Positions 6,651 to 23,739 of a DNA stretch of 32,000 bases are shown in pieces. The DNA is from Cupriavidus necator (GTDB taxonomy: Bacteria; Pseudomonadota; Gammaproteobacteria; Burkholderiales; Burkholderiaceae), in the NCBI RefSeq assembly GCF_016127575.1, contig NZ_CP066019.1:2310001-2342000 (forward strand). The letters are read 5' to 3'. The translations under genes were made by a program, and so were the position numbers. Numbering within the stretch: the stretch's first letter is position 1; each line of letters opens with the position of its first letter. The notes under the pieces were generated by a model. The model searched no databases. It was not told where the DNA came from and saw nothing but the letters and a program-made list of their open reading frames with translations.

Positions 6651-7634
6651 ATGCAACGCACCCGCCGCGCCCTGGCAGCCGCCGCTGCCCTGGCCGCATG
6701 CCTGCCGCTGTTCAGCGCCAGAGCCCTCGCCGCCGCCCCCTATCCGTCCAAGCCCATCCAGATGATCGTGCCGCAGGCACCGGGCGGCACCAACGACATC
6801 GTCGCGCGACTGGTCGCCGCGACCCTGTCGCAACGGCTCGGCCAGCAGGTGGTGGTGGAAAACCGCCCGGGCGCCGGCGGCAATATCGGCACCCAGGCAG
6901 CGGCCCGCGCCACGCCGGACGGCTACACGCTGCTGATGACCATCAGCAGCACGCAGGCCATCAACCCGTCGCTGTACCGCAGCATTCCGTTCGACCCGGT
7001 CAAGGATTTCGAGCCGATCGCCCCGGTGGCAAGCGTGCCGAACGTGCTGGTGGCCAATCCCGCCTTCCCCGCCAAGTCGCTGCCCGAATTGATCGCGATG
7101 GCCAAGGCCAGGCCGGACTACTACCGCTATGCCTCCGCCGGCAATGGCACGCTGAACCACCTGCTGGGCGAGATGCTCAACAGCATGGCCGGCATCAAGC
7201 TCGAACATGTGCCCTACAAGGGCGTCGCGCCGGCGCTGAACGATGTGCTGGGCAACCAGGTGCCGCTGGCCTTCGCCAGCCTGCCGTCGGTGCTGGCCCA
7301 TATCAAGGCGGGCAAGGTGCGCGCGCTCGGCGTCAGCTCCGCCAAGCGCTCGCCGTTCGCGCCGGACATTCCCGCGATCAACGAAACCGTGCCCGGGTAT
7401 AGCGGCGACCTCTGGGTCGGCCTGTTCGCGGTCAAGAATACGCCGAAGGACGTGACCCAAAAGCTCGGCCAGGCCATGCAGGAGATCCTGGCGGACAAGA
7501 CCCTGCGCGACAAGCTGGCGGCACAGGGCGCCGAAGTGATGACGGGCACGCCGCAGCAGTTCAGCAAGATGCTGGCGTCCGACATGGACAAGTGGGCCCG
7601 CATCGTGAAGGCATCGGGCGCGCAGGTGGACTGA
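6651..7634 (+). CDS. Bug-family (tripartite tricarboxylate transporter, TctC-like) periplasmic substrate-binding protein, 327 aa
   Basis: ORF 6600..7634 trimmed to ATG 6651 after AGGAGA. Signal peptide MQRTRRALAAAAALAACLPLFSARALA. Bug signature: PYPSKPIQMIVPQAPGGTNDIVARL, then YASAGNGTLNHL and VPYKG. Confidence 0.9.
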   Translation: MQRTRRALAAAAALAACLPLFSARALAAAPYPSKPIQMIVPQAPGGTNDIVARLVAATLSQRLGQQVVVENRPGAGGNIGTQAAARATPDGYTLLMTISSTQAINPSLYRSIPFDPVKDFEPIAPVASVPNVLVANPAFPAKSLPELIAMAKARPDYYRYASAGNGTLNHLLGEMLNSMAGIKLEHVPYKGVAPALNDVLGNQVPLAFASLPSVLAHIKAGKVRALGVSSAKRSPFAPDIPAINETVPGYSGDLWVGLFAVKNTPKDVTQKLGQAMQEILADKTLRDKLAAQGAEVMTGTPQQFSKMLASDMDKWARIVKASGAQVD

Positions 7635-7643
7635 GCGCGGCGT

Positions 7644-9041
7644 TCAAGGGCGCGCCAACCGCGCCCGGAACACCACGAGCAAGCCTAGCATTGCCGCTGC
7701 CAGCCCAAATTGCTGCAGCCCGCCAATCCCCACCTTCCCGCGCTCCCCTTCAATCCACTCGAACCGCGGCGCATTCCGATACTCGTCCGTCGACACGCCA
7801 CGATAGCCCATGATGCGCGGGACGAAGTACGCGCGCCACTGCGCTTCGAAGCGGTCTACCCGTGCCATGAAGCTGGCGTACCGCGGCGCGTCACTGCCTG
7901 CCAGCCGGTCGGCAGCAAGCAGCAGCGACAGTGGCGGCGACAACCAGCCCCATCGTTCCGCCTGCTCGAAACGCAGCGCGCGCGCCTGGTCGAACGCGGA
8001 CACGACCGGCCGGATATGCGCTGCCTGGTCGAGGTAGCGCGGCATGAAGCTGACCGGCCATGCGTGCTGTCGTGCCGTGGCCGGGGCCCACTGCGGATTA
8101 GCCTGATACCACTCGTCCACCAGGGCCGACATCCTGGCTTCCGCGCTCTGCTGCGCCGCGCGGATCTGGACGATTGCCGCCAGCCGTGACGGCATCGGCA
8201 TCGTGCGATCCGCCAGCGCCGCGACCATCGCAGGCGTGCCGAAGGTGGCGATGACCCACAGGCCAAGCCCGGCCAGCACCGCCGTGGCACCGGAACCGGG
8301 CAGCAGGTTGAGCGCACCGCTGGCCGCACTCCAGAACGCGATGAACGCCGTCACGCAGAACAGCCATGCGAGATACGCCGACAGCGTTGCTGCGGGGTCC
8401 AGCACGAATGCCAGCGTGGAAGCGAGCACTGCAATCAGCCAGACGGCGCCCGCCCGAACCGCGATGGCGGCGAACAGCACACGCCCGCCGGCCGCACCCT
8501 GCGCCATCAACATCCGCCACGTGCCATGTTCGCGCTCGCCCTGGACCATGCCTGCGCACAGGCAAACCAGCATGAGCGGCGCCAGCAGCGCGATCGCCGT
8601 CGCCAGGTCGAAGGTGCCATAGCGCTGCAACAGCGGGTTGGCCAGCCGCTCCTCGTTGCGCGCGTCGGTGTGGCGGCTCTCGACAGTGACGCGAACCGAC
8701 GGCGGCAGCAGGTCCAGCACGCTGCTCGCCAGCGCCAACCCGCCACCTGGCGGCAGCTGCGCCACCGGGGCTTCCGACCTGGCGAACCGGAATGCCGCCA
8801 TGGCGGCCTGCTCCGGCGATGCCGGCGATGCCTTGGCCTGGGCAAGGCGCAACGCCGCCTGCCCGTTTGCTTCCAGCTGCTGCAGCTTCTCATGCCATGC
8901 GCGCGCACTGAGACCCGATGCCAGCGCGCACGCGCACAGGGCGGCAGCAAACAGCAGCAGCGCCCAACGGGCACTGCCCGCCGCGCGGAAGCGGCGGCAT
9001 TGCGCGGCAAGCGCCTGCCTGGTCTGTCTTATGGGGTTCAT
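7644..9041 (-). CDS. ABC-2-type permease, DUF3526-like (second paralogue), 465 aa
   Basis: ORF 7644..9248 trimmed to ATG 9041, which overlaps the upstream stop as ATGA (9038-9041). Architecture: N-terminal TM, periplasmic segment, QGEREHGTWRML motif, a block of TM helices, a soluble domain of about 170 aa and a C-terminal TM. This is the same architecture as the upstream permease. Confidence 0.75.
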   Translation of the reverse strand: MNPIRQTRQALAAQCRRFRAAGSARWALLLFAAALCACALASGLSARAWHEKLQQLEANGQAALRLAQAKASPASPEQAAMAAFRFARSEAPVAQLPPGGGLALASSVLDLLPPSVRVTVESRHTDARNEERLANPLLQRYGTFDLATAIALLAPLMLVCLCAGMVQGEREHGTWRMLMAQGAAGGRVLFAAIAVRAGAVWLIAVLASTLAFVLDPAATLSAYLAWLFCVTAFIAFWSAASGALNLLPGSGATAVLAGLGLWVIATFGTPAMVAALADRTMPMPSRLAAIVQIRAAQQSAEARMSALVDEWYQANPQWAPATARQHAWPVSFMPRYLDQAAHIRPVVSAFDQARALRFEQAERWGWLSPPLSLLLAADRLAGSDAPRYASFMARVDRFEAQWRAYFVPRIMGYRGVSTDEYRNAPRFEWIEGERGKVGIGGLQQFGLAAAMLGLLVVFRARLARP

Positions 9042-10456
9042 GGCTGTATCCTGCGAAGAGAGAAGAACAGGCCGGCCACGGCCAGCCCGCACCACCAGAA
9101 CATGATCGCGATCTCCGGCAACGCTGCCCGCAGCGCGAACAGCGCCGGCGGCATGGTGTAGGCAAAGGGCCGGATTGCGCGCCAAAGCGCAGCGCCTGCG
9201 TACCTGGCATCGAACGAAGTCATGCCGCGCGTGTGGCTGGCATCCCATTCATCGATGGCCGTGTTGACGCTGCGCCGATAGCGCTCCGCGGCGGCCTCGT
9301 AGTCGCGCTGGTGCGAGAGATCCGTTCCCGCCATCTTCATGGCGAAGTTGCGGATCGCCAGCGTGGGGCTCAGCAGCGCGGCGGCGCGCATCACGTTCTC
9401 CTGCGCCGCATAGCGCTGCCACAGCGCATCGAAATGCAGCGCATGGACCCGGTCGGCGTAGGCGTCGCGCTCCAGCCGCCGCAGCGGCGCCGCGCCCACG
9501 GGCAGGTCCTCGAGGCGCGTGACGCCATAGCGCGACAGCAGCGCCGCGTCATGGCGTTCGGTGCGGGCCGCCAGGTTGCCGTCGCCCGGCAATCCCTCCG
9601 TGAAGTCGCGCTGGATCGCCGCCCAGAACGCTTGCGCCGACGGCAGCGGCACGGCATGCCGCGCAACCGCCGCGCCAATGCCCGGGATCACGAAGACAAA
9701 GGCCAGCCACAGGCCCACCAGCACGAACAACGCGCTCCTGCCGTCGGCCAGCCAGGCCGACACCGCCAGGCCCAGTCCCACCAGAATCGCGGTGTATAGC
9801 AGATAGGCGGCACCCAGGCCCGCTGCCCGCCACCAGACCGCACCATCCAGCGTGCCGCCGGCGCTGGCCGCGATGACCGGGGCCAGCGCGACGGCCAGCG
9901 CAAACACGGCAAAGCCCGCGCCCAGCGCCAGGAATTTGCCGGCCACGAGCCTGGCCGGCGCCACGCCGGCGCCGTGCATCATGCGCAGTGTGCCGCGCTG
10001 CCGCTCGCCGCTGACGGCATCGAAAGTGACTGCGATCACCAGCAGCGGCAACAGCACCGCGAACACGAAGCCGGCGCTCAGGTCGCCGAAGCGGGTGGAT
10101 GGCAGCGCATCCTGCGCGGGCTCGAAGCGCGCCACATTGCGCCGGTGCGGCTCCAGCCACAGCGCCTGGCCAAAGTAGTCGCCCAGCCCCGGCTCGATCA
10201 CCGTCAGCGCGGAGGCGGGCCGGAACACGTACAAGCCGAAGTGCGCGCCGCGATGCGGATGCTTGTCACCCTGGTCGTCCCACTGCTGCCGCGTGGCGGC
10301 GGTAACCTGCGCCACCTCGCTGGCGACGGCGGCATGCCGCTGCAGCGAGGCCAGGATGGCGACGGCCAATACCGCGGCGCCGATCGCAAGCAGGGCTGCG
10401 AAGCGCCCCTCCCTGGCCATCGCCCTGAGTTCCTTCACAACCACGGTCCTGATCAT
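9038..10456 (-). CDS. ABC-2-type permease, DUF3526-like (first paralogue), 472 aa
   Basis: Start ATG 10456 overlaps the ATPase stop as ATGA (10453-10456). MIRTVVVKELRAMAREGRF is typical of an ABC-2 N-terminus. Also SGERQRGTLRMM, five or more TM helices, a soluble domain and a C-terminal TM. Confidence 0.8.
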   Translation of the reverse strand: MIRTVVVKELRAMAREGRFAALLAIGAAVLAVAILASLQRHAAVASEVAQVTAATRQQWDDQGDKHPHRGAHFGLYVFRPASALTVIEPGLGDYFGQALWLEPHRRNVARFEPAQDALPSTRFGDLSAGFVFAVLLPLLVIAVTFDAVSGERQRGTLRMMHGAGVAPARLVAGKFLALGAGFAVFALAVALAPVIAASAGGTLDGAVWWRAAGLGAAYLLYTAILVGLGLAVSAWLADGRSALFVLVGLWLAFVFVIPGIGAAVARHAVPLPSAQAFWAAIQRDFTEGLPGDGNLAARTERHDAALLSRYGVTRLEDLPVGAAPLRRLERDAYADRVHALHFDALWQRYAAQENVMRAAALLSPTLAIRNFAMKMAGTDLSHQRDYEAAAERYRRSVNTAIDEWDASHTRGMTSFDARYAGAALWRAIRPFAYTMPPALFALRAALPEIAIMFWWCGLAVAGLFFSLRRIQP

Positions 10457-11169
10457 GGCGCAACACCCTGCGCGCGCGCATGGGCCAGGTAGGTTGAGGC
10501 CAGTGCCTCGTGGCCGACGGTGGCCGCGTCAAACTCGGCCACCAGCACGCCGGCACGCAGGATGCCGATGCGGTCGGCGAGCTGCCTGGCGTTGAACAGG
10601 TCATGCGTGGCCATCAGCACCGCCGTGCCCGCGTCCGCCGCTTGCCGGACACGGCTTGCCATGTCATCGGCCGCGGCCGGGTCCAGCCCTGAGGTCGGCT
10701 CGTCAAGCAGCAGCAATGACGCGGATTTGGCCTGGGCGATGGCCAGGCCCACCTTCTGGCGCATGCCCTTCGAGTATTTCGCTACGCGCCGGCCGTGCGC
10801 GTCGCGGGCCAGCCCCGCGCCGTCCAGCAGCGCCGTGGCCTCGGCACGCGACAGGCTGATGCCGGCAATCGCGCAGAAGTAATCCAGGTTTTCCGCGCCG
10901 GACAAGTAGGGATACAGCGCGACGTTCTCGGGCAGGTAGGCGACGCGCCGCCTGACCGCAGCCGGATCGGCAACGGGCGACAGTCCGTCGACCAGCACCG
11001 TGCCACCGGCCGGCGGGACAAACCCCAGCGTCACATCGATGGTGGTGGTCTTGCCCGCGCCGTTGCCGCCCAGCAAGGCGTAGATGCAGCCCTTCGGCAC
11101 GGTAATATTCAGGCCGTCCACCACGCGACGCCCGTCGCGATGGACAACCAGGTCACGAATTTCAAGCAT
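10453..11169 (-). CDS. ABC transporter ATP-binding protein, 238 aa
   Basis: Walker A LLGGNGAGKTT, signature YSKGMRQKVGLA, Walker B LLLLDEPTSGLD, H-loop ATHD. GGAGA lies upstream of the ATG, 21 nt after the receptor stop. Confidence 0.92.
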   Translation of the reverse strand: MLEIRDLVVHRDGRRVVDGLNITVPKGCIYALLGGNGAGKTTTIDVTLGFVPPAGGTVLVDGLSPVADPAAVRRRVAYLPENVALYPYLSGAENLDYFCAIAGISLSRAEATALLDGAGLARDAHGRRVAKYSKGMRQKVGLAIAQAKSASLLLLDEPTSGLDPAAADDMASRVRQAADAGTAVLMATHDLFNARQLADRIGILRAGVLVAEFDAATVGHEALASTYLAHARAQGVAP

Positions 11170-11190
11170 GTCGTGTCTCCGTCGAATACG

Positions 11191-13302
11191 TCAGAAGAAA
11201 TAGCGTGCCGCCATGCCGGCCTGCCATTTCGGCTGCGGCGCTACCAGCAGCCCCGCTGCGGACCCATACGCGGCCTCGGTCGAGAACCGGTGCGGCTGCA
11301 GCACCGCGAACAGCGACAACTGGTATTGCTTCCAGTCGAGCACCGCACGCAAGTCGAAGCGCGTGTAGGCTGGCATGAAGCGCAACTGGGTCTGCGGCGC
11401 CCCCATGTAATAGGGAATACCGGTAGTCAGGTAAGCATCGGCATTGACCGTCAGTTGCGCGCCCTGCAGCCGCTGGCGGTACTCGGCGCCCAGCTTGAGC
11501 TGGTGCCGGGGAACCGAAAGCCTGGCCCCCGTGTTTGGCAGCGGGTTGTTTGCTTCGGCCTGGATGATCTGCCCGTAGCTGGCGTAGACCGACACCGGGC
11601 GGATGGGCCGCCAGCGGGCCTCGAGCTCATATCCCTTGCGCGTCGTGTCGCCGACCGACTTGAACGATCCGTCCGGCTGCCCCACGATCTCGTCCTCATT
11701 CAGCGTGTAGTAGGCTGCTGCGGTCACGGTCAGGTTGTTGGCCGGCGTCGCGGTAAAGCCCACGTCGTAGGATTTCACCTTCGACGGCGATACGTCATAG
11801 ACCGTGCCGCCGGGAGCGCCCAGCGGGCCCGTGGCCCCGCTGCTGCTGATCTGCTCCGCGGCCGGCGAACGGAAGCCCTGCGCGACGTTGGCGAACAGGT
11901 CGAGCCGGGGCAGCACCGACCAGACCGCGCCGAGCTTCGGCGTGGTGACGCCCGAGAAGTAGTCGGTGCTCGCTGCCGGCAGCTTGCGGTTGACGATGTC
12001 GTAGTCGAACCAGTCGCGCCGCAGGCCGGCGGTCAGCTTGACCGCTTCGACGGGCCTGAACTGCCCCTGCACGAACAGCCCGTAGGTGAGCAGGTCGAGC
12101 TGCTGCGCGTTGATATAGTTCGCAGTGGGCACGCCACGCACCCAGATCTGGCGCTGCGCGTCGCCGCGGTCGCGGCGCACTTCCGCGCCGACCATGAGCG
12201 CGGCCCGGTCTCCGAAGGTGAAGTTGTTGGCCAGCCGGCCGCCGAAGATATTCCGGTCATCCGAACCCACGGTGTGCTGCACGCTGCTGGTGGCAATGCC
12301 ACGCTCGCGCTCGAAGGCTTCCCCGTACAACGTCGCATACCAGCCGTCCTCGCCATGCGCCGGGGCGCGATTCAGCGCGAACATCGAACGCTTGCCGCTG
12401 CCGAAGCCCGGCAGCCCGTATTGCGTGGAGCGCGGGTCCACCTTGCCGGATTGCAGGTCGCTCAGCAGCAGGTAGCCGGCGGCTGTCGATTCGGAGCGAT
12501 AGTGGTTGAGCCGCAGGCTGTAGACGCCGTCGCCGATCCTGGTCGACAGCTTCCAGAAAAAGTTGTCGCGGTCGGTGCTGCCGTCGTACCGGTAGCTATG
12601 GGTGCGGTAGATATCGGCCACGAACAGCGACTTGATCGGCTCAGGCCCGGGCCGGAACGCATGGCTGCCTGACAGGACCAGTGTTGCGCGCTTGCCGTTG
12701 TACCGGTCGAAGCCGATGCCGATGCTGGAGGGCACGTCGCCCGACTGCGTGCTGATCGGCACGGCACCCGCCCGGTTCTGGTCGCCATACAACGCGGACA
12801 CCGGCCCCTTGATGACGTCAATCTGGCCGATCATGTCCGGGGTCAGCCATTCCAGGAATGCAGGCCCATGCCCGGCGCCGGCCTGGCTGGACGGCATGTT
12901 CTGCGGCACCCCGTCCACATAGACTGCGGTGTCGGCGCCGTGCGTGCCCTGGGTGGCGAAGCCGCGCATGCGGAAGCCGTTGCCCGTGTCGCCCTGGTCG
13001 ATGTTGTTGGCCACCACCCCAGGTACACGGCGGAACATGTTGGAGATGTCCCGGCCGATATTGATGGTGCCCAACTCGTCGGCGGTGACGACCGAGACCG
13101 CGGTCGGCAGGCCGGTGCTGTCCGTGGTCACGAGCTTGCGTTTGCCTTGCAGGCTGGTGTCCTGCGTCGCCACCACGCTGACTTCCGGCAGCACCGTATG
13201 CTGGCCTTCGGCAAATGCGGCCTGACTGAAGACGCCCGACGAGAGCGAGAGCAGTGTCCAGGCCAGGGGGCGCGCGGCACCCGTGTTTTCGTTCTTGTTC
13301 AT
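11191..13302 (-). CDS. TonB-dependent outer-membrane receptor, 703 aa
   Basis: ORF 11191..13374 trimmed to ATG 13302. Signal peptide ...LLSLSSGVFSQAAFA. Plug: VLPEVSVVATQ...VSVVTADEL...FRRVPGVVANN...FRMRGF...VYVDGVPQN...IDVIKGPVSALYG. A long barrel follows, ending in the terminal aromatic residues AARYFF. Confidence 0.9.
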   Translation of the reverse strand: MNKNENTGAARPLAWTLLSLSSGVFSQAAFAEGQHTVLPEVSVVATQDTSLQGKRKLVTTDSTGLPTAVSVVTADELGTINIGRDISNMFRRVPGVVANNIDQGDTGNGFRMRGFATQGTHGADTAVYVDGVPQNMPSSQAGAGHGPAFLEWLTPDMIGQIDVIKGPVSALYGDQNRAGAVPISTQSGDVPSSIGIGFDRYNGKRATLVLSGSHAFRPGPEPIKSLFVADIYRTHSYRYDGSTDRDNFFWKLSTRIGDGVYSLRLNHYRSESTAAGYLLLSDLQSGKVDPRSTQYGLPGFGSGKRSMFALNRAPAHGEDGWYATLYGEAFERERGIATSSVQHTVGSDDRNIFGGRLANNFTFGDRAALMVGAEVRRDRGDAQRQIWVRGVPTANYINAQQLDLLTYGLFVQGQFRPVEAVKLTAGLRRDWFDYDIVNRKLPAASTDYFSGVTTPKLGAVWSVLPRLDLFANVAQGFRSPAAEQISSSGATGPLGAPGGTVYDVSPSKVKSYDVGFTATPANNLTVTAAAYYTLNEDEIVGQPDGSFKSVGDTTRKGYELEARWRPIRPVSVYASYGQIIQAEANNPLPNTGARLSVPRHQLKLGAEYRQRLQGAQLTVNADAYLTTGIPYYMGAPQTQLRFMPAYTRFDLRAVLDWKQYQLSLFAVLQPHRFSTEAAYGSAAGLLVAPQPKWQAGMAARYFF

Positions 13303-13440
13303 GAGGCCTCGCGGCAGCCCGGCGGTATCCGCTACGGGCACCGGGCTTGCCGTACAAAATTCAGACGTGAGCATGCCGCCCGCCTGGCATGACGCAGCGG
13401 ACGCGCAATCAGATATACGGGAAAGGGATGCGGCCGGGGG

Positions 13441-13848
13441 TTAGCCGGCGGCGCGGGGCAGCGCCGGTGGCGCGCGCAAGGCGGGCGGAGAGAGGAAGCG
13501 GGTACGCCATGTCGGCGCGGCGACATCGACCTGCCGTACCCGTGACAACAGGCGCAGGATGACGCAGAGCATTTGCACCGCGATGGCGGCGCTGATGAAG
13601 AGATGCAACCGGGGCGAGCACCACAGGCAATCGCATTCCGTCGTGCCATCGGCAGGCACGCGGTCCGTGTCGGACGTGTCCGGCGTGGCGGCCGTATCGG
13701 GGATTGCGCCTGCGCTTGTGTTCGCCACGACAGCCTCCAGCCGCGTTCCCGGTACCGCATGCACGTGCGTCACCGCGGCCCACGCCTGCACTAGCAAGAG
13801 CAGGAGCACGGCCCAGATGAGACGAACGAAGTTCGCATGCTTACGCAT
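13441..13848 (-). CDS. Small Cys-rich membrane protein, DUF2946-like, 135 aa
   Basis: N-terminal TM/signal MRKHANFVRLIWAVLLLLLVQAWAAV, a His/Thr/Asp-rich linker, the Cys cluster ECDCLWC, and a second hydrophobic segment LHLFISAAIAVQMLCVIL. It lies 138 nt upstream of the receptor on the same strand. There is no clear Shine-Dalgarno sequence, and family membership is not verified. Confidence 0.5.
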   Translation of the reverse strand: MRKHANFVRLIWAVLLLLLVQAWAAVTHVHAVPGTRLEAVVANTSAGAIPDTAATPDTSDTDRVPADGTTECDCLWCSPRLHLFISAAIAVQMLCVILRLLSRVRQVDVAAPTWRTRFLSPPALRAPPALPRAAG

Positions 13849-13880: not shown

Positions 13881-13909
13881 ATATTAACGCAACTCAATTG
13901 CAATTGTAA
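13881..13909 (-). promoter_or_regulatory. Candidate sigma70 promoter for the DUF2946/TBDR operon, with tandem CAATTG palindromes in the spacer
   Basis: Minus-strand reading: TTACAA (13909-13904), 17 nt, TAATAT (13886-13881). The spacer contains CAATTGCAATTG (13895-13906). This is the only AT-rich patch in the 208-nt divergent region. Confidence 0.35.
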
Positions 13910-14056: not shown

Positions 14057-15214
14057 ATGCAAAACCTGGGGATTCGCATACGCCTGGGCGCGGCGTTTGG
14101 CGCCATGTGGTCGCTGATGGCGATCGGGATCGCGGTGGCCTTGCCGCGGATGCAGGAGGCGGCCGATGCGCGGCGCCTGCTGATCGCGTTGGGCGTGGGT
14201 GGGCTATGCCTGGCGGTGGGCGCGGTCTGGGCGCTGGCGCGCAGCATCGAGGCGCCGTTGTCAGAAGCCGTCTACATAGCCGAGACCGTGGCGGCGGGCG
14301 ACCTCAGCCAGGAGTTCGACACCGAGCGCGGCGGCGAGTTTGGGCGGCTGCTGGGCGGCCTGGGAGAGATGGAAGACATGCTCACCGACCTGGTGACACG
14401 CATCCGCGCTTCCACCGATTCGATCACCGCCGCTTCGCACCAGATTGCCGCGGGCAATACCGACCTGTCGCAGCGCACGGAAGAGCAGGCGGCGGCGCTG
14501 GAAGAGACCGCGTCAAGCATGGGCGAGCTGACCTCGATGGTGCAGCAGAACACCGAACGCGCGCGCGCCGCCAACGGGCTGGCGGCAACCGCATCGGGAA
14601 TCGCCGCGCGCGGTGGCGAAGTGGTGGGCAACGTGGTGCAGACCATGTCGGCGATCAGCGCCAGCTCGCGCAAGGTCACGGACATCATCGAAGTGATCGA
14701 AGGCATTGCCTTCCAGACCAATATCCTGGCGCTGAACGCGGCGGTGGAAGCCGCGCGCGCGGGTGAGCAGGGGCGCGGCTTTGCCGTGGTGGCCGGCGAG
14801 GTGCGAACGCTGGCGCAACGCAGTGCGTCGGCGGCGCGGGAGATCAAGCAACTGATCGACGATTCGGTGCAGCAGGTGGACAGCGGCTCGGCACTGGTGG
14901 GCCAGGCCGGCGAGACCATGCAGGAGATCGTTCAGGCAGTGGCCAGCGTGACCGGGCTGCTGGGCGAGATCACTGCGGCCTCTGAACAGCAAAGTGCCGG
15001 GATTGCGCAGGTCAACGAGGCGGTGGCGCAGATGGACACCGTGACGCAGCAGAATGCGGCGCTGGTGGAGCAGGCGGCCAGTGCCTCGCACGAACTGGCG
15101 GGCCAGGCCACTGAGCTGCAGCGCGTGGTGGGCGAGTTCAGGCTGGATGCGGAACCGGCGTCAGCACAGGCGCCGGGGCATGGCGCATTCAGGCAGGTTG
15201 CTGCGTTCGGCTGA
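14057..15214 (+). CDS. Methyl-accepting chemotaxis protein with a minimal periplasmic loop, 385 aa
   Basis: ORF 13994..15214 trimmed to ATG 14057 after GGGGAGAGA. Two TM helices are separated by only about 15 residues, followed by a HAMP-like segment. Signalling domain: [24 protein letters not shown] and [41 protein letters not shown]. Confidence 0.9.
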
Positions 15215-15308: not shown

Positions 15309-16646
15309 TCAAGCCGTCACGCAAGCCGGCAGCACTGCCTGCACCGCCGCCGCAAAGCGCTCGACAATCCTGTCGATATCCTGCGGCGTGCAAATAAACG
15401 GCGGTGCGAACAACACGTGGTCGCCATGCACGCCATCGACCGTGCCACCCATCGGATAGACCAGCAGGCCGTTCTGCACGGCGGCGGCTTTCAGGCGCGC
15501 ATGCGTCTTCAGCGCCGGATCGAGCGTGGCCTTGCTGTCGCGGTCGGCCACGAACTCCACACCGACGAACAAGCCGCGTCCACGGATATCGCCCAGGTTG
15601 GGATGGTCACCCAGCACCTCGCGTAACCGTGCGCGCAGTTGCTCGCCGCGCGCCAGCACGTTGGCCAGCAAGTTGTCTTCGGCAATGGTCCGCTGCACCG
15701 CCAGCGCCGCGGCGCAGGCCGTGGCATGGCCGATATAGGTATGGCCATGCTGGAAGAAGCCGCTGCCGCCGACGATGGCGTCGTAGATCCTGCGCGTCGA
15801 CAGCATCGCGCCGATCGGCTGGTAGCCCGCACCCAGGCCCTTGGCAATGGTGACGATATCGGGCACCACGCCATCCTCTTCGCACGCGAACAGGAAGCCG
15901 GTACGGCCCATGCCTGACATCACTTCATCCAGGATCAGCAGCACGCCGTACTTGTCGCACACGGCGCGGATGCGCTTCAGGTAGTCGCCCACCGGCGGCA
16001 CCGCGCCGGCGGTGGCGCCCACCACGGTTTCGGCAACGAAGGCGGCCACCGTGTCGGGGCCAAGTTCCAGGATCTTGGCTTCCAGCTCGTCGGCCAGGCG
16101 CTGTGCGTATTGCGCGTCGGTCTCGCCGGCCTGCTGGTCGCGGTAGGCATAGCACGGCGACACGTGGTGCGCCGGCACCAGCAGCGGCAGGAAGGGCTCG
16201 CGCCGCCAGGCGTTGCCGCCGATGGCCAGCGCGCCCAGGGTGTTGCCATGGTAGCTCTGGCGGCGCGCGATGAAGTGGCGGCGGCTGGGCTGCCCTGCTT
16301 CGACGAAATACTGGCGCGCCAGCTTCAGCGCCGACTCCACCGCTTCGGAGCCGCCGGAGACAAAGTAGACATGGTCGAGATCGCCCGGCGCGGCCTGCGC
16401 CAGCGTCTCGGCCAGCGTTTCCGATACCTCGGTGGTGAAGAACGACGTATGCGCGTAGGCGATGGTGTCGAGCTGCGACTTGATCGCCTCGATCACGCGC
16501 GGATGGCCGTGCCCCAGGCACGACACGGCGGCACCGCCGGAGGCGTCGAGATAGCGCCGGCCTTCGCTGTCGATCAGTTCGATGCCCTGCCCGGCAACGG
16601 CAACGGGCAGCTTCTGGCGCGGATTGCGATGGAATACGTGGGTCAT
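15309..16646 (-). CDS. Class III (omega-type) PLP-dependent aminotransferase, 445 aa
   Basis: Motifs: DASGGAAVSCLGHGHP, YFVSGGSEAVESALKLARQY, LILDEVMSGMGRTG, DIVTIAKGLGAGY (PLP lysine context). Confidence 0.9.
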   Translation of the reverse strand: MTHVFHRNPRQKLPVAVAGQGIELIDSEGRRYLDASGGAAVSCLGHGHPRVIEAIKSQLDTIAYAHTSFFTTEVSETLAETLAQAAPGDLDHVYFVSGGSEAVESALKLARQYFVEAGQPSRRHFIARRQSYHGNTLGALAIGGNAWRREPFLPLLVPAHHVSPCYAYRDQQAGETDAQYAQRLADELEAKILELGPDTVAAFVAETVVGATAGAVPPVGDYLKRIRAVCDKYGVLLILDEVMSGMGRTGFLFACEEDGVVPDIVTIAKGLGAGYQPIGAMLSTRRIYDAIVGGSGFFQHGHTYIGHATACAAALAVQRTIAEDNLLANVLARGEQLRARLREVLGDHPNLGDIRGRGLFVGVEFVADRDSKATLDPALKTHARLKAAAVQNGLLVYPMGGTVDGVHGDHVLFAPPFICTPQDIDRIVERFAAAVQAVLPACVTA

Positions 16647-16671
16647 GATGGTGTGGTGGTGGTGCCGCGCG

Positions 16672-18177
16672 TCAGCGGCGCAGAGCGGAATCGGTGTCGG
16701 CGGGGTGGCGCTCCAGCACGCGGCCGGAAAACGCGGGCAGTGCGCTGCCTTCGCTGTCCGTCTGTGTGGACTGTTCCCAGACCCTGGCGCCGTTGACCCA
16801 GACGCCGTGGATGCCGGTGCTCAGTTGCAGCGGGTCTTCAAAGGTGGCACGGTCCTGCACCCGGTCCGCATCGAACAGCACCAGGTCGGCAAACGCGCCC
16901 GGCACGATCCGGCCGCGGTCCGCCAGCCCGTATTGCTGCGCGGCCAGGCCGGACATCTTGTGGATTGCGGTTTCCAGCGTCATCAGCTGGTCTTCGCGCA
17001 CCATGCGCGCCAGGATGCGCGGGAAGGTGCCCCACTGGCGCGGATGCGGGCGCGGATCGAACGGCAGGCCGTCCGAGCCGAAGATGGTCAGCGGGAACTG
17101 CGCAATGCGCTCGACATCGCGCTCATCCATGATGAAGTAGATCGCCGCCGCGGGGCGCAGCTTTGCCAAGAGCGCGTCCTCGTCCAGGCCAAGCTCCTGC
17201 ATCAGCTCGTGGAAGTCGCGGCCGCCCGCAGGCGGGTAGCCGGTGGACCAGGTGATCATGGTGCGCGTGGACTGGCGCACGCGGTCCAGCCGCAGCATGG
17301 TCGAGGTCGCGGGATAGGGATGGCAGTCCAGGCACAGCGGCTGCAAGCGCGCGGCGTCGGCCAGCAGGCCGAGGGTTTCGACCGAGCGGCCATGATTGCG
17401 CTTGCCCGCGACCTTGTGGTGGGAAAACACCACCTGGCAGTCAAGCGCGCGGCCAATGCGCAGCGCTTCTTCGATCGACGGCACGATGTCGTCGGTCTCG
17501 TCGCGCAGGTGGGTGGAATAGAGGCCGCCGTGGGTGCGGACCGGCTCGCACACGGCGATGATCTCGGTTTCGGTGGCGGCTGCCGCGGGCGGATAGAACG
17601 TGCCGGTCGAGACACCGAAGGCGCCCGCCTCCATTGCCAGCCTGACCTCGTCGCGCATCGCAGCGATTTCTTCTGCATTGGCGGCCCGGTTCAGCTCCGG
17701 CATCGCGCGCACGCGCAACGTCGAATGCCCGAGCAGCGGCACCACGTTGACGTTGGCCGGCGTCGCGCGCAATGCGTCGAGCCACTGCGCGAAGGTATCG
17801 AAGCGGAACAGCGCGGGCGGCCCCAGCAGGTCCAGCGGCTGCGGCGGCGCGCTGCTGACCAGCGGTGCCACGCTGATGCCGCAGTTGCCGGTGACCACGG
17901 TGGTGATGCCCTGCGACACCTTGGGCGTCATGTCCCGATGCACCAGCAGGTAGCCGTCGTCGTGCGTGTGGGCATCGATAAAGCCCGGTGCCAGCACGCG
18001 GCCGGCTGCGTCCACGGTATGGTCCGCGGTCATGTCAGCGCAGTCGCCTACGGCGACGATGCGGTCGCCCGCGACTGCCACATCGGCCGCGCGGCGGGCT
18101 GCGCCCGTGCCGTCCACGACCGTGGCGTTGCGGAAGATCAGGTCGGCGCGCCGGTGCGCGGCTGGTTGCGATGCCAT
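16672..18177 (-). CDS. N-acyl-D-amino-acid deacylase (D-aminoacylase) family amidohydrolase, 501 aa
   Basis: ORF 16672..18183 (TTG) trimmed to ATG 18177 after AAGGA. Motifs: DLIFRNATVVDGTG, APGFIDAHTHDD (HxH metal site), GITTVVTGNCG, STHLRDE, and the C-terminal beta-domain segment ADLVLFD. Confidence 0.88.
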   Translation of the reverse strand: MASQPAAHRRADLIFRNATVVDGTGAARRAADVAVAGDRIVAVGDCADMTADHTVDAAGRVLAPGFIDAHTHDDGYLLVHRDMTPKVSQGITTVVTGNCGISVAPLVSSAPPQPLDLLGPPALFRFDTFAQWLDALRATPANVNVVPLLGHSTLRVRAMPELNRAANAEEIAAMRDEVRLAMEAGAFGVSTGTFYPPAAAATETEIIAVCEPVRTHGGLYSTHLRDETDDIVPSIEEALRIGRALDCQVVFSHHKVAGKRNHGRSVETLGLLADAARLQPLCLDCHPYPATSTMLRLDRVRQSTRTMITWSTGYPPAGGRDFHELMQELGLDEDALLAKLRPAAAIYFIMDERDVERIAQFPLTIFGSDGLPFDPRPHPRQWGTFPRILARMVREDQLMTLETAIHKMSGLAAQQYGLADRGRIVPGAFADLVLFDADRVQDRATFEDPLQLSTGIHGVWVNGARVWEQSTQTDSEGSALPAFSGRVLERHPADTDSALRR

Positions 18178-18204
18178 CGTCAATCCTTGTCTCGTTGGCG
18201 GGCC

Positions 18205-19194
18205 TTACTGCGGCGTGATGCCGGCCTGCCTGACCACGGCCGCCCATTTGTCGGTTTCACGCGCGGCATAGCCGGCCAGCGCCTGCGGCGTGCCGCCGAC
18301 CGTCTCGGCGCCCAGTGCGGCGAACTTGTCCTTGATGGCCGGATCCGCCAGCGCGCGGTTGAAGGCGCCGTTGAGCTTGCCCACCACCCCGGCGGGCGTG
18401 CCTTGCGGCGCGACCAGGCCGCCCCAGGCCACCCCTTCGAAACCCGGCACGCCAGACTCCGCGATGGTGGGCAGCGCCGGCAGCAGCGGCGAGCGCGCCA
18501 GGCTGGTCACCGTCAGCGGCTTGAGCTTGCCGGCCTTGATCAGCGGCAGGATGGTCGGCATGTTGTCGATCAGCACATTGACCTGGCCGCCCATCACATC
18601 GGTGGCGGCCTGCGGGCTGCCCTTGTAGCCGACGTGCGTCCAGGCCAGCCCCGCCTTGTCCGCGAGCAGCTGGCCAGTCAGGTGGCCGGACGTGCCCTGG
18701 CCCGGCGAGGCATAGGTGACCTTGTCCGGGTTGGCCTTGACGTAGGCCACCAGCTCGGCAAAGGTCTTCACCGGCATCTCCGGCCTGACCGCGATCACAT
18801 TCGGCACCTTGAACAGCAGCACCACCGGCACGAAGGCATCGGGCCGGTACGGCAGCTTGCGGAAGGTGCTCTTGTTGATCGACAGCGTCACGTTGTTGGC
18901 ATAGCCGAGCGTGTAGCCGTCAGGCGCGGCGCGTTCCAGTTCGGAGATGCCGATCACGCCCGAGGCGCCGGGCTTGTTGTCGATCACGAACGACTGGCCC
19001 AGCGACTTGCCGACTTCGGCGCCCAATGCGCGCATCAGCACGTCGGGACTGCCGCCGGCGGCTGACGGCACCACCAGGCGGATCGGGCGCGACGGATAGC
19101 TGTCCGCCATTGCCGGGCCAGCCAGGCCCACGGCGCCCAGCCACAACAGGGTGGCCATGAACCGTCGCTTTTGCTGCTGCCTTTGATCTTGCAT
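18205..19194 (-). CDS. Bug-family (TctC-like) periplasmic substrate-binding protein, 329 aa
   Basis: ORF 18205..19266 trimmed to ATG 19194 (alternative ATG at 19157). The signal peptide ends GPAMA. Bug signature: SYPSRPIRLVVPSAAGGSPDVLMRAL, then YASPGQGTSGHL and VGYKG. Confidence 0.9.
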   Translation of the reverse strand: MQDQRQQQKRRFMATLLWLGAVGLAGPAMADSYPSRPIRLVVPSAAGGSPDVLMRALGAEVGKSLGQSFVIDNKPGASGVIGISELERAAPDGYTLGYANNVTLSINKSTFRKLPYRPDAFVPVVLLFKVPNVIAVRPEMPVKTFAELVAYVKANPDKVTYASPGQGTSGHLTGQLLADKAGLAWTHVGYKGSPQAATDVMGGQVNVLIDNMPTILPLIKAGKLKPLTVTSLARSPLLPALPTIAESGVPGFEGVAWGGLVAPQGTPAGVVGKLNGAFNRALADPAIKDKFAALGAETVGGTPQALAGYAARETDKWAAVVRQAGITPQ

Positions 19195-19241
19195 CTCGAT
19201 ATCCCGTTCAGTACCTGGGTTGGACCCGGCTACGCGTTTGC

Positions 19242-19271
19242 AGTATAGGGGCATGACCCGAACCAATGCAA
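19242..19271 (-). promoter_or_regulatory. Candidate sigma70 promoter for the Bug/D-aminoacylase/aminotransferase operon
   Basis: Minus-strand reading: TTGCAT (19271-19266), 18 nt, TATACT (19247-19242), about 48 nt upstream of ATG 19194. TGTTTCA boxes lie immediately upstream. Confidence 0.4.
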
Positions 19272-19365
19272 CATTTGTTTCTTAAATGCTCATCATGAAA
19301 CAATAACGATGCGACGCCGGCACGAATGCCTTTGCCGCAACGGCCCGAACTCCATGAAACAGTCG

Positions 19366-20721
19366 TTACAGCCATCGGGGCGTCGCGCTGCGGCACAGCC
19401 CCTGCGCCTCAAGGAAGCGCGCCGCCGCCAGTGCCTGGCTCTCGAGCCCGGGCGCGGCCACGATCTGGATGCCTGCGGGCAAGCCCTCGCCCGCGCACGG
19501 CGCGGCTACAACGGGCAGGCCCGCCAGCGACAACGGGCGCGTCAGGTGCCCGGCATCGGCACGTGGGCAATAGATGCGGCCGGTGCCGTTGACGGTGTCG
19601 GCACCGATCGGCGTGGCCGCATAGGGCGTCGAAGGGGCCAGCAGCAGGTCGACGTCATCGAACAGCGCCAGCAGCCGCTGCCGCCACGCTGACTGGTACT
19701 GGCGCGCGATGTCATACCAGCCGCGCGGCATCGCCAGCCCGGCCAGGATGCGCTGGCGCACGAAGGCGCTGTAGCCGCCATGGCGCTCGGAGAAGCCCAT
19801 GGCCTGGTGGTTGCGCCCGACTTCGTAGGCGGAGATCACCGAGGCGGCATCGCGCGAACTGTCGGCGTCGGGCAGGTCAATGGTGCGCACCGCGCCAAAG
19901 GCCGAGGCCACGCGCAGCACCGCCGCCTGCACCGCGGGCTCGGCAAAATCGGAAAAGCCGCGGCCGAGCACGCCGACGCGCAGCGTCGCGGCACCACGGC
20001 CTTGCGGATCAGCAGGCGCGTCCACGCCGAGCATTGCCGCATAGGCCAGCGCGAGGTCACAGGCGCTGCCGGCCATCGGGCCGACCGTATCCAGGCTCTG
20101 CGCGTACGGCACGCATCCGGCCAGGGACAACCGCCCCGTGGTCGGGCGCAGCCCCCAGATGCCGCAGAACGCGGCCGGGGCGCGGATCGACCCATTGGTA
20201 TCCGAACCCAGCCCGAACGGCACCACCCCGGCAGCCACCAGCGCCGCGGTGCCGGCCGACGAGCCGCCGGTGATGCGCGACGGATCGAGCGGATTGCGCA
20301 CCGGACCGCCGATCACGTTCTCGCCGGTAGCGCCGCACGCGTATTCGTCCATCGCCGCCAGCGCAACGGGCACCGCGCCCGCGGCGACCAGCGCCTCGAC
20401 CGTATCGGCATGGCGCAGCGCCGGCGGCTCCTGCGCGCGTGGCGCGGCGCCGGCCAGCGTGGCGTGGCCGCGCACGTCCAGCAGGCTCTTCACCACGAAC
20501 GGCACGCCCGCCAGCGGCGGCAGCAGCCGGCCCTGCGCGCGCAGCCGGTCCAGCGCGGCGGCCTGCGCCAGTGCGCTGTCCGCCAGCAGCGCCGAGCAGG
20601 CATTGAGCGGCGCGGCGGCTTCGGCGCGCTGCAGGGCGTCTTGCACCAGGTCGAGGGCAAGCCGCTCGCCGCTGCGTACTTGCGCGGCCATGGCGGCGGC
20701 GGTCGGCGTGTCAGCAACCAT
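19366..20721 (-). CDS. Amidase-signature family amidohydrolase (AtzE/GatA-like), 451 aa
   Basis: ORF 19366..20874 trimmed to ATG 20721 after GGAGGGG. AS signature: GGSSAGTAALVAAGVVPFGLGSDTNGSIRAPAAFCG. The catalytic Lys context is PFVVKSLLDV. Confidence 0.88.
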   Translation of the reverse strand: MVADTPTAAAMAAQVRSGERLALDLVQDALQRAEAAAPLNACSALLADSALAQAAALDRLRAQGRLLPPLAGVPFVVKSLLDVRGHATLAGAAPRAQEPPALRHADTVEALVAAGAVPVALAAMDEYACGATGENVIGGPVRNPLDPSRITGGSSAGTAALVAAGVVPFGLGSDTNGSIRAPAAFCGIWGLRPTTGRLSLAGCVPYAQSLDTVGPMAGSACDLALAYAAMLGVDAPADPQGRGAATLRVGVLGRGFSDFAEPAVQAAVLRVASAFGAVRTIDLPDADSSRDAASVISAYEVGRNHQAMGFSERHGGYSAFVRQRILAGLAMPRGWYDIARQYQSAWRQRLLALFDDVDLLLAPSTPYAATPIGADTVNGTGRIYCPRADAGHLTRPLSLAGLPVVAAPCAGEGLPAGIQIVAAPGLESQALAAARFLEAQGLCRSATPRWL

Positions 20722-20905
20722 GCTGCCCCTCCGCTTGCGCCAGCGCCTGGCGCAGGCCCGCCACCATGGCCGCCATGCCGGCCAGCAGCGCGGCGGCCTG
20801 CTCGCAATCCTGGGGTGCCACCGGCACCTGCAGGCCCGCGGCGGCTTGTGCCACCAGGCCGGCGGGATCGTCATCGCGTGCTTGTGCCATGGTTGCTTGC
20901 GCCAT
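20711..20905 (-). CDS. Small Ala-rich protein, AtzG/DUF4089-like (GatC-like partner of the amidase), 64 aa
   Basis: ATG 20905 lies 3 nt after the MFS stop, and GGAGCTGAGGG spans the end of the MFS gene, its TGA stop and the 3-nt spacer up to the ATG. The stop overlaps the amidase start by 11 nt. It is a helical Ala/Leu-rich protein of about 60 aa, matching the size and position of the small subunit reported for AtzE-type amidases. The family call is an inference. Confidence 0.5.
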   Translation of the reverse strand: MAQATMAQARDDDPAGLVAQAAAGLQVPVAPQDCEQAAALLAGMAAMVAGLRQALAQAEGQHGC

Positions 20906-20908
20906 CCC

Positions 20909-22234
20909 TCAGCTCCGCGATTGCATCAGCTGGCGTGGAATCGCCAGGATCAGCACCGCCGCGGCCAGCATCAGCCCGGCCAGCGCCAGCACGCCCAGCG
21001 AGATGCTGCCGGTGCTCTGCTTGATGCCGCCCATCAGCACCGGGCCGATCAGGCCGGCCAGGCTGGCCGCGCTGTTGATCATGGCAATGCCGCCAGCCGC
21101 GGCGGTGCCGGCCAGCACGCGGCCCGGCAGGCCCCAGAACATCGACAGCGTGGCCATCAGGCCGGAAATGCCGATAGTCAGGAACACCATCGCCATCACC
21201 GTGTTGTGCGGGAACAGCGTGCTCGCCCACATGCCGACGGCGGCCACCAGCAGCGGCAGCGCGGAGTGCAGGCGGCGCTCGCCGGTGCGCTCGGCGTGCG
21301 CGGCGTTGACGTTCATCGCCACGCACGCGACCGCATACGGGATCGCCGTCAGCATGGCGATCTCAAGCGGCGACGACATCCCGGTCGACTGGATGATGGT
21401 GGGCAGCCAGAACACCAGGCCGTAGTTGCCGATATTGAACAGCAGGCAGATCGCCATCAGCATCCACAGGACCGGCGACTTGAGCGCGGCGATGAAGCGG
21501 GTGTTCTTCTTCGCGTTCTCGGTGGTCAGCGTGTGGGTGATGGCGCCCGCCTCGGCCGGCGTGAGCCATGGCGCGGCCTCCGGCGACTCGGGCAGCATGC
21601 GCAACAGCAGCAGGCCCAGCACGATGGCCGGGAGCGCCTCGATCAGGAACATCCACTGCCAGCCTTGCAGCCCGTGCAGGTCATGCGTGGCTGACATCAG
21701 CGCGCCGGAGATCGGGCCGCCCAGCACCATGCCCAGCGGCATCGCCAGGAACAGGATCGACATGATGCGCGACTGCCGGTCGGCCGGGTACCACTTGTTC
21801 AGGTACATCACCGCGGCCGGGAAGAAGCCGGCCTCGGTCACGCCCAGCAGGAAGCGCGCCGCGTAGAACTCCATCGGCGTGGTCACGAACATGGTCGCGG
21901 CGGATACCAGCCCCCACAGGATCATGATGGCCGCCATGCTGCGGCGCATGCCGAGGCGGTAGATCAGCAGGCTGCTGGGCACCTGGCACAGCATGTAGCC
22001 CCAGAAGAAGATGCCCGCGCCCAGGCCATAGACCACGTCGCTCAGCCCCAGCGCCTGCTGCATCTGCAGCTTGGCGAAGCCCACGTTGACCCGGTCCAGG
22101 TAGCTGAAGAAATAGCACAGCACGATAAACGGCACGATGCGGCGCGTGACCTTGGCGAACGCGGCGGCGGCGGCGTCCGGCAACACCGCGGCGTGGCCCG
22201 GGGACTGCGGGATGGCTGGCTTGGCCAGGGACAT
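20909..22234 (-). CDS. MFS transporter, anion:cation symporter (ACS) type, 441 aa
   Basis: ORF 20909..22291 trimmed to ATG 22234 after AAGGAGGA. Motifs: RRIVPFIVLCYFFSYLDRVNVGFAKLQM, GLGAGIFFWGYMLCQVPS. About 12 TM helices. Confidence 0.9.
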   Translation of the reverse strand: MSLAKPAIPQSPGHAAVLPDAAAAAFAKVTRRIVPFIVLCYFFSYLDRVNVGFAKLQMQQALGLSDVVYGLGAGIFFWGYMLCQVPSSLLIYRLGMRRSMAAIMILWGLVSAATMFVTTPMEFYAARFLLGVTEAGFFPAAVMYLNKWYPADRQSRIMSILFLAMPLGMVLGGPISGALMSATHDLHGLQGWQWMFLIEALPAIVLGLLLLRMLPESPEAAPWLTPAEAGAITHTLTTENAKKNTRFIAALKSPVLWMLMAICLLFNIGNYGLVFWLPTIIQSTGMSSPLEIAMLTAIPYAVACVAMNVNAAHAERTGERRLHSALPLLVAAVGMWASTLFPHNTVMAMVFLTIGISGLMATLSMFWGLPGRVLAGTAAAGGIAMINSAASLAGLIGPVLMGGIKQSTGSISLGVLALAGLMLAAAVLILAIPRQLMQSRS

Positions 22235-22300
22235 GATGGATCTCCTCCTTGTACGGGCGCGCGGTATCCGGCGCCATGGAGATGCCATCATAGCGGAGTA

Positions 22301-23504: not shown

Positions 23505-23631
23505 GGGCATCCCCTCCGCTTTTTTTCAACCGATGGTGAATTGAGTAACTCGAACCTTACACCATCACCGCAAATCGCGCGAATTGATAGCCATGGACCA
23601 TCAAGCGAGCAAATTTCATCGGTTTTTTGAA

Positions 23632-23661: not shown

Positions 23662-23680
23662 TCACTTCACATCACCAACA

Positions 23681-23712: not shown

Positions 23713-23739
23713 GCAACGAGACCAACAAGGAGACAACCC

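Follow-up and report, generated by a model that had tools for sequence, protein, structure and literature searches.

The window analyzed here, a stretch of 32 kb of high-GC DNA (~68% GC) from Cupriavidus necator (NZ_CP066019.1, positions 2,310,001 to 2,342,000), carries on its minus strand four codon-biased open reading frames (ORFs) arranged head to tail. They encode a TonB-dependent receptor (703 aa; 11191–13302; Pfam Plug and barrel domains), an ABC ATPase (238 aa; 10453–11169; ABC_tran), and two permeases with ABC2_membrane_2 and DUF3526 domains, permease 1 (472 aa; 9038–10456) and permease 2 (465 aa; 7644–9041). A first-pass annotation, made from the sequence alone, had placed these four genes at the same positions with a 21-nt receptor–ATPase gap, two ATGA overlaps, and no binding protein or TonB/ExbBD nearby, and each of these points was borne out. 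The receptor stop codon (TGA) occupied 11191–11193 and the ATPase began with the ATG at 11169, leaving 21 nt between them; the ATPase/permease 1 and permease 1/permease 2 junctions were ATGA overlaps at 10453–10456 and 9038–9041; and no binding protein or TonB/ExbBD was encoded across the 32-kb window. The same annotation described the unit as translationally coupled, which suits the two overlaps but not the receptor/ATPase junction, a short gap with its own ribosome-binding site (a GGAGA Shine-Dalgarno sequence). It also ended the unit at 13302, which is right for the four genes but too short for the whole, because a cruR-type leader ORF (DUF2946; 135 aa; 13441–13848, minus strand) and a Zur-box-like operator (TTAACGCAACTCAATTGCAATTG; 13884–13906, no strand assigned) also belong to it. 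The unit is thus a predicted five-gene operon (cruR leader, receptor, ATPase, permease 1, permease 2) behind a Zur-type operator. It is flanked by a TctC gene in convergent orientation and a chemoreceptor gene in divergent orientation.

The operator has the core GCAAC-N4-TTGCA, and lies ~35–58 nt ahead of the cruR ATG, with a –10-like TAATAT directly after it on the coding strand. Using a position weight matrix trained on eight predicted Zur sites of Cupriavidus, Ralstonia, and Methylobacillus (Haas et al., 2009, Additional file 5), we found that the window site scored 30.7 bits, compared with 25–34 bits for the training sites and 10.7 bits for the next-best site in the 32 kb, making the Zur-type match unique within the window. 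Predicted Zur palindromes of the form TGCAAC-N3-GTTGCA or GCAAC-N4-TTGCA occur in Cupriavidus metallidurans, Ralstonia eutropha, R. solanacearum, and Methylobacillus, where they precede zur, COG0523/yciC, and folE2 operons (Haas et al., 2009, Additional file 5). With a Zur-type box at the promoter position, the operon is a predicted member of the Zur regulon.

The leader ORF matched the Pfam model for DUF2946 (PF11162) at 24.1 bits, barely above the cut-off of 23.7, and encoded an N-terminal export signal, a CxxC motif (CLWC, residues 74–77), and a RAPP sequence (residues 125–128) that ends seven residues ahead of the stop. The hallmarks of the CruR family are an export signal, a CxxC motif, RAPP near the C-terminus at a CxxC–RAPP distance of 45 plus or minus 2 residues, position as the first gene of an operon, and a long spacer before the next gene (Roy et al., 2022, PMC9426467). 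The window leader had every one of these sequence features, including a CxxC–RAPP distance of 47 residues, the first position in the operon, and a 138-nt minus-strand spacer before the receptor (13303–13440). In Bordetella pertussis, CruR is a copper-responsive upstream ORF followed by a 162-nt spacer, and experiments have established that DUF2946 leaders are copper-responsive attenuators, acting in Bordetella by a Rho-dependent mechanism (PMC9426467). The first 60 nt of the window spacer were C-rich (25 C versus 15 G), a terminator scan found no intrinsic terminator on the coding strand of the leader region, and an Rfam scan found no Rfam element between leader and receptor. This combination fits, but does not prove, a Bordetella-type Rho-dependent mechanism and makes the spacer a candidate Rho-dependent attenuation site. 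By homology to Bordetella CruR, copper would relieve stalling at the window leader and thereby permit Rho-dependent termination.

Both permeases exceeded the Pfam gathering cut-offs for ABC2_membrane_2 (PF12679, 27.2 bits) and DUF3526 (PF12040, 25 bits), as the first-pass annotation had anticipated: permease 1 scored 75.4 bits (6e-21) and 116.1 bits (2.8e-33), respectively, and permease 2 scored 41.8 bits (1e-10) and 120.1 bits (1.6e-34). Their proposed paralogy was likewise upheld by a BLASTP E-value of 3e-12, with 32% identity across the transmembrane (TM) block, and by a common GER(Q/E)xGT(L/W)RM motif. Permease 1 was 97% identical to a protein of Cupriavidus sp. SK-4. Two longer homologs, P0202 and P0209 (966–967 residues), matched permease 1 in two stretches and are apparent permease 1–permease 2 fusions, supporting assembly of the pair as a heterodimer. 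No paper in the literature library searched mentioned DUF3526.

An AlphaFold2 model of permease 1 (predicted local distance difference test score, pLDDT, 79.8; predicted template-modeling score 0.81) had a six-TM ABC-2 fold in which DUF3526 is inserted between TM5 and TM6. From the N-terminus, the model consisted of an amphipathic helix, TM1, an 86-residue loop, TM2–TM5, the helical DUF3526 domain, and the final TM helix. We infer an N-in topology, with the N-terminus, the TM2–TM3 loop, and the C-terminus in the cytoplasm; the distribution of Arg and Lys residues together with the modeled helices place the 86-residue loop and DUF3526 in the predicted periplasmic portion. The TM2–TM3 loop, which bears the GERxxGTxRM sequence, is likely to be the coupling helix. 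No match was obtained in a sequence search of the PDB with permease 1, and its best Foldseek fold match there was NosY, a weak one (E-value 1e-3; template-modeling score 0.28 by query and ~0.5 by target), followed by ABCG and ABCA transporters, all of them also weak (E-value 1e-3 or worse). When the DUF3526 domain was modeled alone, the prediction was confident (pLDDT 91), and Foldseek found no meaningful fold match for it in the PDB.

Permease 2 has the same architecture as permease 1, but conserved residues distinguished the two. In an alignment of 17 permease 1 sequences from Proteobacteria, Verrucomicrobia, Myxococcota, Bacteroidota, and Marinimicrobia, invariant or nearly invariant positions included Gln58, Trp59, Pro67, His68, Arg69, Ala71, His72, Gly74, Glu102, and His104 in the predicted periplasmic loop and His382, Glu391, Tyr393, and Arg394 in DUF3526. 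Judged from these sequences, the His and Glu residues of permease 1 have stayed conserved since these phyla diverged. Conserved residues of permease 2 were limited to Pro, Gly, Trp, Arg, and Leu, and the His/Glu set of permease 1 was missing. Invariant His and Glu side chains on one subunit only resemble a predicted metal site and are unlike what a channel for export of an organic molecule would need.

The receptor matched the Pfam Plug (PF07715; 74 bits, E-value 2e-20) and TonB_dep_Rec_b-barrel (PF00593; 140 bits, E-value 2e-40) models, and its N-terminus comprised a signal peptide followed by a TonB-box-like LPEVSVVAT sequence, read by eye rather than with a model. It fell below every NCBIfam equivalog or subfamily cut-off. 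The score was 134.9 bits against a cut-off of 223.5 for TonB-dependent siderophore receptors (TIGR01783) and 25.2 bits against a cut-off of 472 for OprC/NosA copper receptors (TIGR01778), so the receptor is a member of neither group. Among 50 aligned orthologs, His121 and His145 of the plug were invariant, and no conserved Cys/Met cluster was present. The ATPase contained an ABC_tran domain (E-value 2e-25) with no extra domains, and its translation included Walker A (GGNGAGKTT), signature (YSKGMRQK), Walker B (LLLLDEP), and H-loop motifs. Its best NCBIfam matches were DrrA, GldA, NodI, and CcmA, all under cut-off, and by these sequence features it is classified as a plain ABC-2 nucleotide-binding domain of the DrrA–NodI–CcmA type. 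The idea that the ABC complex replaces TonB as the energizer of the receptor was considered and rejected, since the receptor retains its TonB-box-like N-terminus and nothing was found in favor of such a replacement.

When one genome per species was scanned, 80 loci were recovered. The order receptor–ATPase–permease 1–permease 2 was kept in all ~50 loci from beta- and gamma-proteobacteria, with receptor identities of 52–91%, in Cupriavidus, Variovorax, Achromobacter, Bordetella, Roseateles, Comamonas, Acidovorax, Massilia, Herbaspirillum, Noviherbaspirillum, Ottowia, Hydrogenophaga, and Xanthomonas albilineans. Elsewhere the order was receptor–permease–permease–ATPase (Sphingomonadales, Phenylobacterium, and Opitutales), ATPase–receptor–permease–permease (Sorangium), or Fur-family regulator–receptor–ATPase–permease–permease (Bacteroidota). 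Across at least six phyla, 75 of 81 loci had a receptor gene on the same strand and within 6 kb of permease 1, and the six loci lacking one nearby were mostly on truncated contigs. A wider search for the permease gave 622 clusters (50% identity) at E-values up to 1e-30 and 1433 at E-values up to 1e-10, spanning Proteobacteria, Verrucomicrobia, Myxococcota, Bacteroidota, Planctomycetes, and others; Singulisphaera was among ten distant cluster representatives that we looked up. A Pfam census of 134 flanking genes at 50 loci revealed no recurrent binding protein, PepSY, TonB/ExbBD, or biosynthesis genes, and FUR was the only recurrent and relevant family, from which we conclude that the module is self-contained. 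The plasmid collection gave only partial matches, from Variovorax and Comamonas, at no more than 74% identity save for one 43-nt match at 93%.

At four loci, a MacB-type ABC pair (ABC_tran plus FtsX/MacB_PCD) adjoined permease 2 (L001:12838–14819, L002:12826–14807, L004:12825–14806, and L007:12884–14859). The pair followed permease 2 on the same strand in L001, L002, and L004, which are from Cupriavidus/Ralstonia, and lay on the opposite strand in L007, where an exact TGCAACAGTGTTGCA box (15006–15020) was present 5' of the pair, between it and a FUSC-family gene. DUF3299 occurred in two flanking genes at other loci. The MacB-type pair and the DUF3299 genes may resemble the Zur-regulated PA4063–PA4066 system of Pseudomonas.

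Metal-responsive elements recurred around the module. First, CruR-like leaders, defined by a CxxC motif followed at a spacing of 44–48 by R/H-A/G-PP located 1–7 residues from the stop, preceded the receptor at 29 loci, the window among them; roughly half of the orthologous operons lacked CruR and carried Zur boxes or Fur-family regulators instead. Second, TGCAAC-type Zur boxes were present in 13 of 49 upstream regions (0.026 expected per region), namely in Oxalobacteraceae and upstream of cruR in every Cupriavidus locus. Classical Zur boxes (ATGTTATnnnATAACAT type; ATGTTAT-N3-ATAACAT) were found in 6 of 49 upstream regions (0.004 expected per region), from Bordetella, Achromobacter, and one Verrucomicrobia metagenome-assembled genome (MAG), and a related, looser classical-type box preceded the receptor in Phenylobacterium, a member of the Caulobacteraceae. 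A Comamonas MAG paired cruR with another looser box, GATGTTATATCATCACAAT, which agrees at 18 of 19 positions with the znuK box of Caulobacter, a site for which binding has been shown by experiment. Third, Fur-family regulator genes adjoined the module in 11 loci, including those of Bacteroidota; all NCBIfam scores that might assign these regulators to Zur, Fur, PerR, or Irr were under cut-off. In two Bacteroidota MAGs (L055:6235–6254 and L058:6232–6251), a perfect TGCAACAATGTTGCA palindrome overlapped the start of the regulator gene that heads the regulator–receptor–ATPase–permease–permease cluster. Finally, in a Hydrogenophaga MAG (L023:4391–7043), znuC (ABC_tran), znuB (ABC-3), and znuA (PF01297) lay directly upstream of the receptor–ABC-2 module and co-directional with it, separated by a gap of ~80–110 nt. 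Taken as sequence signals, these elements indicate that the module is repeatedly wired to metal sensors, that the signal seen most often and with most specificity is zinc, and that copper is a second, post-initiation signal.

Several further features of the relatives deserve record. The TGCAACAATGTTGCA sequence of L055 and L058 is the same palindrome as the predicted Cupriavidus/Ralstonia Zur box, in a distant phylum. In Variovorax (L009–L012 and L035), a 10-4-10 palindrome, TTGCAAATGC-GATT-GCATTTGCAA, lay ~70–40 nt upstream of cruR, between that gene and a divergent Fur-family regulator gene; it was perfect in L009 and L035 and degenerate in L010–L012, and Variovorax loci without cruR (L014, L016, and L019) had TTGTTATTGCGAATGCAATATCATTA instead. 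In Comamonas sp. BIGb0152 (L041:6474–6500), a canonical Fur-box-like sequence, TAATAATGATAATTCATTATCAATTG, was positioned just upstream of cruR; this iron-type box, set against the Zur-type box at another CruR-headed locus, L048, suggests that the transcriptional input to CruR-headed modules may differ between strains. Two Opitutus MAGs (L051 and L059) had a short upstream ORF ending in LHLPPQAPPAV or PPQAPPAV ~100–150 nt before the receptor, which may encode a diverged arrest peptide of the CruR kind in which QAPP substitutes for RAPP.

The first-pass annotation regarded the system as one of unknown function. To treat it as lacking any precedent would be an overstatement, given the copper-responsive DUF2946 leaders described above and a Zur-repressed system of the same architecture in Caulobacter crescentus, where ZnuK (CC1517) and ZnuGHI (CC1518–1520) belong to the Zur regulon (Mazzon et al., 2014, PMC4176598). 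There, znuK and znuGHI are repressed by Zur and derepressed 12- to 41-fold without Zur or zinc, and znuK mutants do not grow under zinc starvation, a phenotype described for ZnuK only (PMC4176598); ZnuGHI has been described as a putative system for high-affinity uptake. In both systems a receptor adjoins an ABC-2 ATPase and two ABC-2 permeases, with a Zur box and without a binding protein, a likeness drawn from architecture and operator rather than from comparison of the ZnuH and ZnuI sequences. The Caulobacter receptor is divergent from the ABC genes and no CruR leader has been reported there, whereas the window genes form a single cruR-headed unit. ZnuK/ZnuGHI, known only from its regulation, is the closest precedent of the window operon. 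Exact matches to the published znuK Zur box were sought in metagenome contigs and turned up at 36 loci, none of which had the module, and protein searches from the Sphingomonadales and Phenylobacterium homologs gave no named Caulobacter match. The best candidate from the znuK-box scan, L115, proved to be an ordinary zur–znuCB/znuA locus and was set aside.

Other known systems shared parts of this arrangement. The copper-repressed cruR(bp2923)-bfrG-bp2921 operon of Bordetella pertussis (Roy et al., 2022, PMC9426467) also has a long spacer after the leader and then a TonB-dependent receptor, but its third gene encodes a PepSY_TM protein where the window has the ABC-2 ATPase and two DUF3526 permeases, and no Zur box has been reported for it. 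A Zur-type operator ahead of a CruR leader, as in the window, suggests dual control by zinc and copper. NosDFY(L), the nitrous oxide reductase maturation system (PDB 7o0y, 7o0z, and 7znq), resembles the window unit in its ABC-2 ATPase, its lack of a binding protein, and its link to a metal. NosY, however, is a homodimer of ~270-residue subunits without DUF3526 or a His-bearing loop, has no associated outer-membrane receptor, and works with periplasmic NosD and the lipoprotein NosL; neither these partners nor a nos gene context was found in the window or among the 134 flanking genes. ZnuD/ZnuABC of Neisseria, Acinetobacter, and Pseudomonas is also a Zur-controlled two-step route with an outer-membrane receptor and an inner-membrane ABC transporter, but ZnuABC employs the binding protein ZnuA (PF01297) and an ABC-3 permease (PF00950), neither of which is encoded in the window, and the window receptor does not reach the ZnuD model. 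On these features, the window system lies outside the NosDFY(L), ZnuABC, OprC-type, and siderophore-receptor families.

How might such an operon work? Handling of the metal at the inner membrane, or across it, is probably the task of the ABC-2 heterodimer. The analysis shows gene content, module conservation, regulatory motifs, invariant residues, and predicted topology, whereas the identity of the metal, the direction of transport, and the job of each regulatory element are inferred. We put at about even the chance that the unit is a self-contained metal-starvation uptake operon, that is, a zinc-starvation route with a copper-sensing shut-off. During zinc shortage, Zur without zinc would leave the operator and transcription would start. 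When copper is low, a ribosome would stall on the RAPP sequence of CruR and shield the transcript from Rho, allowing the receptor and ABC genes to be made; copper bound at the CxxC motif would relieve the stall, and transcription would stop in the spacer. The receptor would bring zinc, free or chelated, into the periplasm via TonB. There, the ABC-2 heterodimer and two copies of the ATPase would present a large periplasmic assembly built from the TM1–TM2 loops and two DUF3526 domains, the His/Glu site of permease 1 would capture the metal in place of a binding protein, and ATP would be spent in moving the metal across the inner membrane or passing it on there. A brake responsive to copper would be rational, since a route built on His residues for Zn(II) would let in Cu(II) as well; in coordination chemistry, His sites prefer Cu(II) over Zn(II). 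The boldest form of this proposal is that the DUF3526 heterodimer is the first bacterial ABC-2 (type V) importer, a binding-protein-independent Zn(II)/Cu(II) pump in which a periplasmic His3/Glu site on one permease captures metal released by the receptor and expression is gated at initiation by Zur and during elongation by a copper-sensing arrest peptide; we advance it tentatively and regard it as possible rather than expected.

A number of observations weigh against a zinc-starvation uptake route. The ABC-2 (type V) fold and this class of ATPase serve exporters or mechanotransducers in bacteria, the structure nearest to permease 1 is NosY, and to our knowledge there is no type V metal importer. 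Because the module coexists with ZnuABC in Hydrogenophaga, import of zinc across the inner membrane need not fall to its ABC-2 part, and CruR-headed operons have otherwise been linked to copper. A few loci (e.g., L034 and L041) carry Fur-type, iron-like boxes, so the metal may differ between lineages. The reference Zur sites behind the weight matrix are themselves computational predictions, a sigma-70 scan found no canonical promoter in the leader region, the His-bearing 86-residue loop of permease 1 was modeled poorly (pLDDT <50), and every line of support for this locus is based on sequences or models. Two suggestions of the first-pass annotation can be judged at this point. Metal handling emerged as the best-supported theme, given the Zur box and CruR leader of the window and the Fur-family regulators and znuCBA adjacency of its relatives, and the view that the system does not perform classical siderophore uptake is supported. 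Nothing that we found favors a physical, envelope-spanning machine composed of the receptor and the ABC complex.

The alternative that survives best is that the ABC-2 complex is not an importer, and either secretes a small metal chelator that the receptor recaptures or, like NosDFY, strips, loads, or passes metal between periplasmic partners. The export-associated fold and ATPase class, the missing binding protein, and the complete znuCBA set alongside the module in Hydrogenophaga all agree with such a role, and the large periplasmic domains recall machines of the MacB and NosDFY types. Nevertheless, no chelator-biosynthesis genes and no NosD-, NosL-, or NosZ-like partner recurred at the 50 loci, the invariant His and Glu residues on a single permease look more like a site for a metal substrate than a docking surface, and a two-step inward route accounts at least equally well for a pairing with the receptor that is strict across phyla. 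We consider this alternative doubtful.

Copper acquisition is a further alternative and, in our judgment, an unlikely one. Here, the receptor would import copper or a copper chelate when copper is scarce, as proposed for CruR-BfrG, the ABC-2 complex would relay copper within the periplasm or through the inner membrane, and the Zur-like box would be incidental or a matter of cross-talk. A CruR leader with intact CxxC and RAPP motifs heads the operon here and in relatives, CruR operons are down-regulated by copper, and DUF2946 shows cofitness with a copper receptor in Pseudomonas. Moreover, NosY, the nearest fold to permease 1, belongs to a copper-enzyme maturation machine, and one permease homolog is annotated as 'multi-copper enzyme maturation, permease component'. 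By contrast, a copper route does not readily account for the CruR-less half of the orthologous operons, with their Zur boxes or Fur-family regulators. Neither does it explain a receptor that is not of the OprC/NosA type (25 versus 472 bits for TIGR01778) and has no conserved Cys/Met site, or conserved permease residues that are His and Glu rather than Met or Cys. The copper-chaperone genes usual in CruR operons (ScoC, PCuAC, CopC, YcnI, and PepSY) were also missing from the window and the flanking-gene census.

Finally, an ordinary iron-siderophore or haem receptor beside an unrelated ABC-2 efflux pump is very improbable: the best subfamily-level matches of the receptor are siderophore and haem receptor models, and Fur-box-like sequences occur upstream in a few relatives, but those matches are far under the curated cut-offs, the window box is of the Zur rather than the Fur type, no siderophore binding protein, FecCD permease, or reductase was found in the window or the flanking-gene census, and gene order and overlaps conserved across phyla, together with the existence of fused permeases, indicate that the adjacency of receptor and pump is not accidental.

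Other features were noted in the window. At 7614–7678, a match to the Rfam 'hya RNA' model straddled the ends at which the TctC gene and permease 2 converge, but scored only 27.9 bits against a gathering cut-off of 56.8 (E-value 0.14) and is most likely a chance match. A minus-strand run at 15309–22291, encoding a class III aminotransferase, an amidohydrolase, a TctC-family binding protein, an amidase, and a major facilitator superfamily transporter, is probably a separate catabolic operon. At 22416–29238, a minus-strand gene for a regulator with helix-turn-helix and PAS domains sits beside a plus-strand run encoding a Rieske oxygenase alpha subunit, an aldehyde dehydrogenase, a GMC oxidoreductase, and a Gcw_chp outer-membrane protein; this region resembles a gene cluster for breaking down a quaternary amine or an aromatic compound and has no connection with the metal operon.

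In many Gram-negative bacteria, the path that zinc and copper take through the inner membrane, once brought in by TonB-dependent uptake, is unsettled. The module described here is widespread, nearly always accompanies a receptor, and stands under metal regulators time and again. The inner-membrane half of this type of system has never been studied biochemically. New here are the conserved pairing of receptor and DUF3526 permeases across phyla, the apparent one-operon arrangement with combined Zur and CruR control, the invariant His/Glu site in a predicted periplasmic loop, and a predicted DUF3526 fold without structural relatives in the PDB. The invariant His residues of permease 1 offer a directly testable target. 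If the ABC-2 complex does import metal, then it would be an exception to the rule that ABC-2 transporters are exporters and would show how an importer can dispense with a binding protein. If the Zur operator and CruR leader act as their sequences suggest, then this would be an uptake route opened by the lack of one metal and closed by an excess of another.

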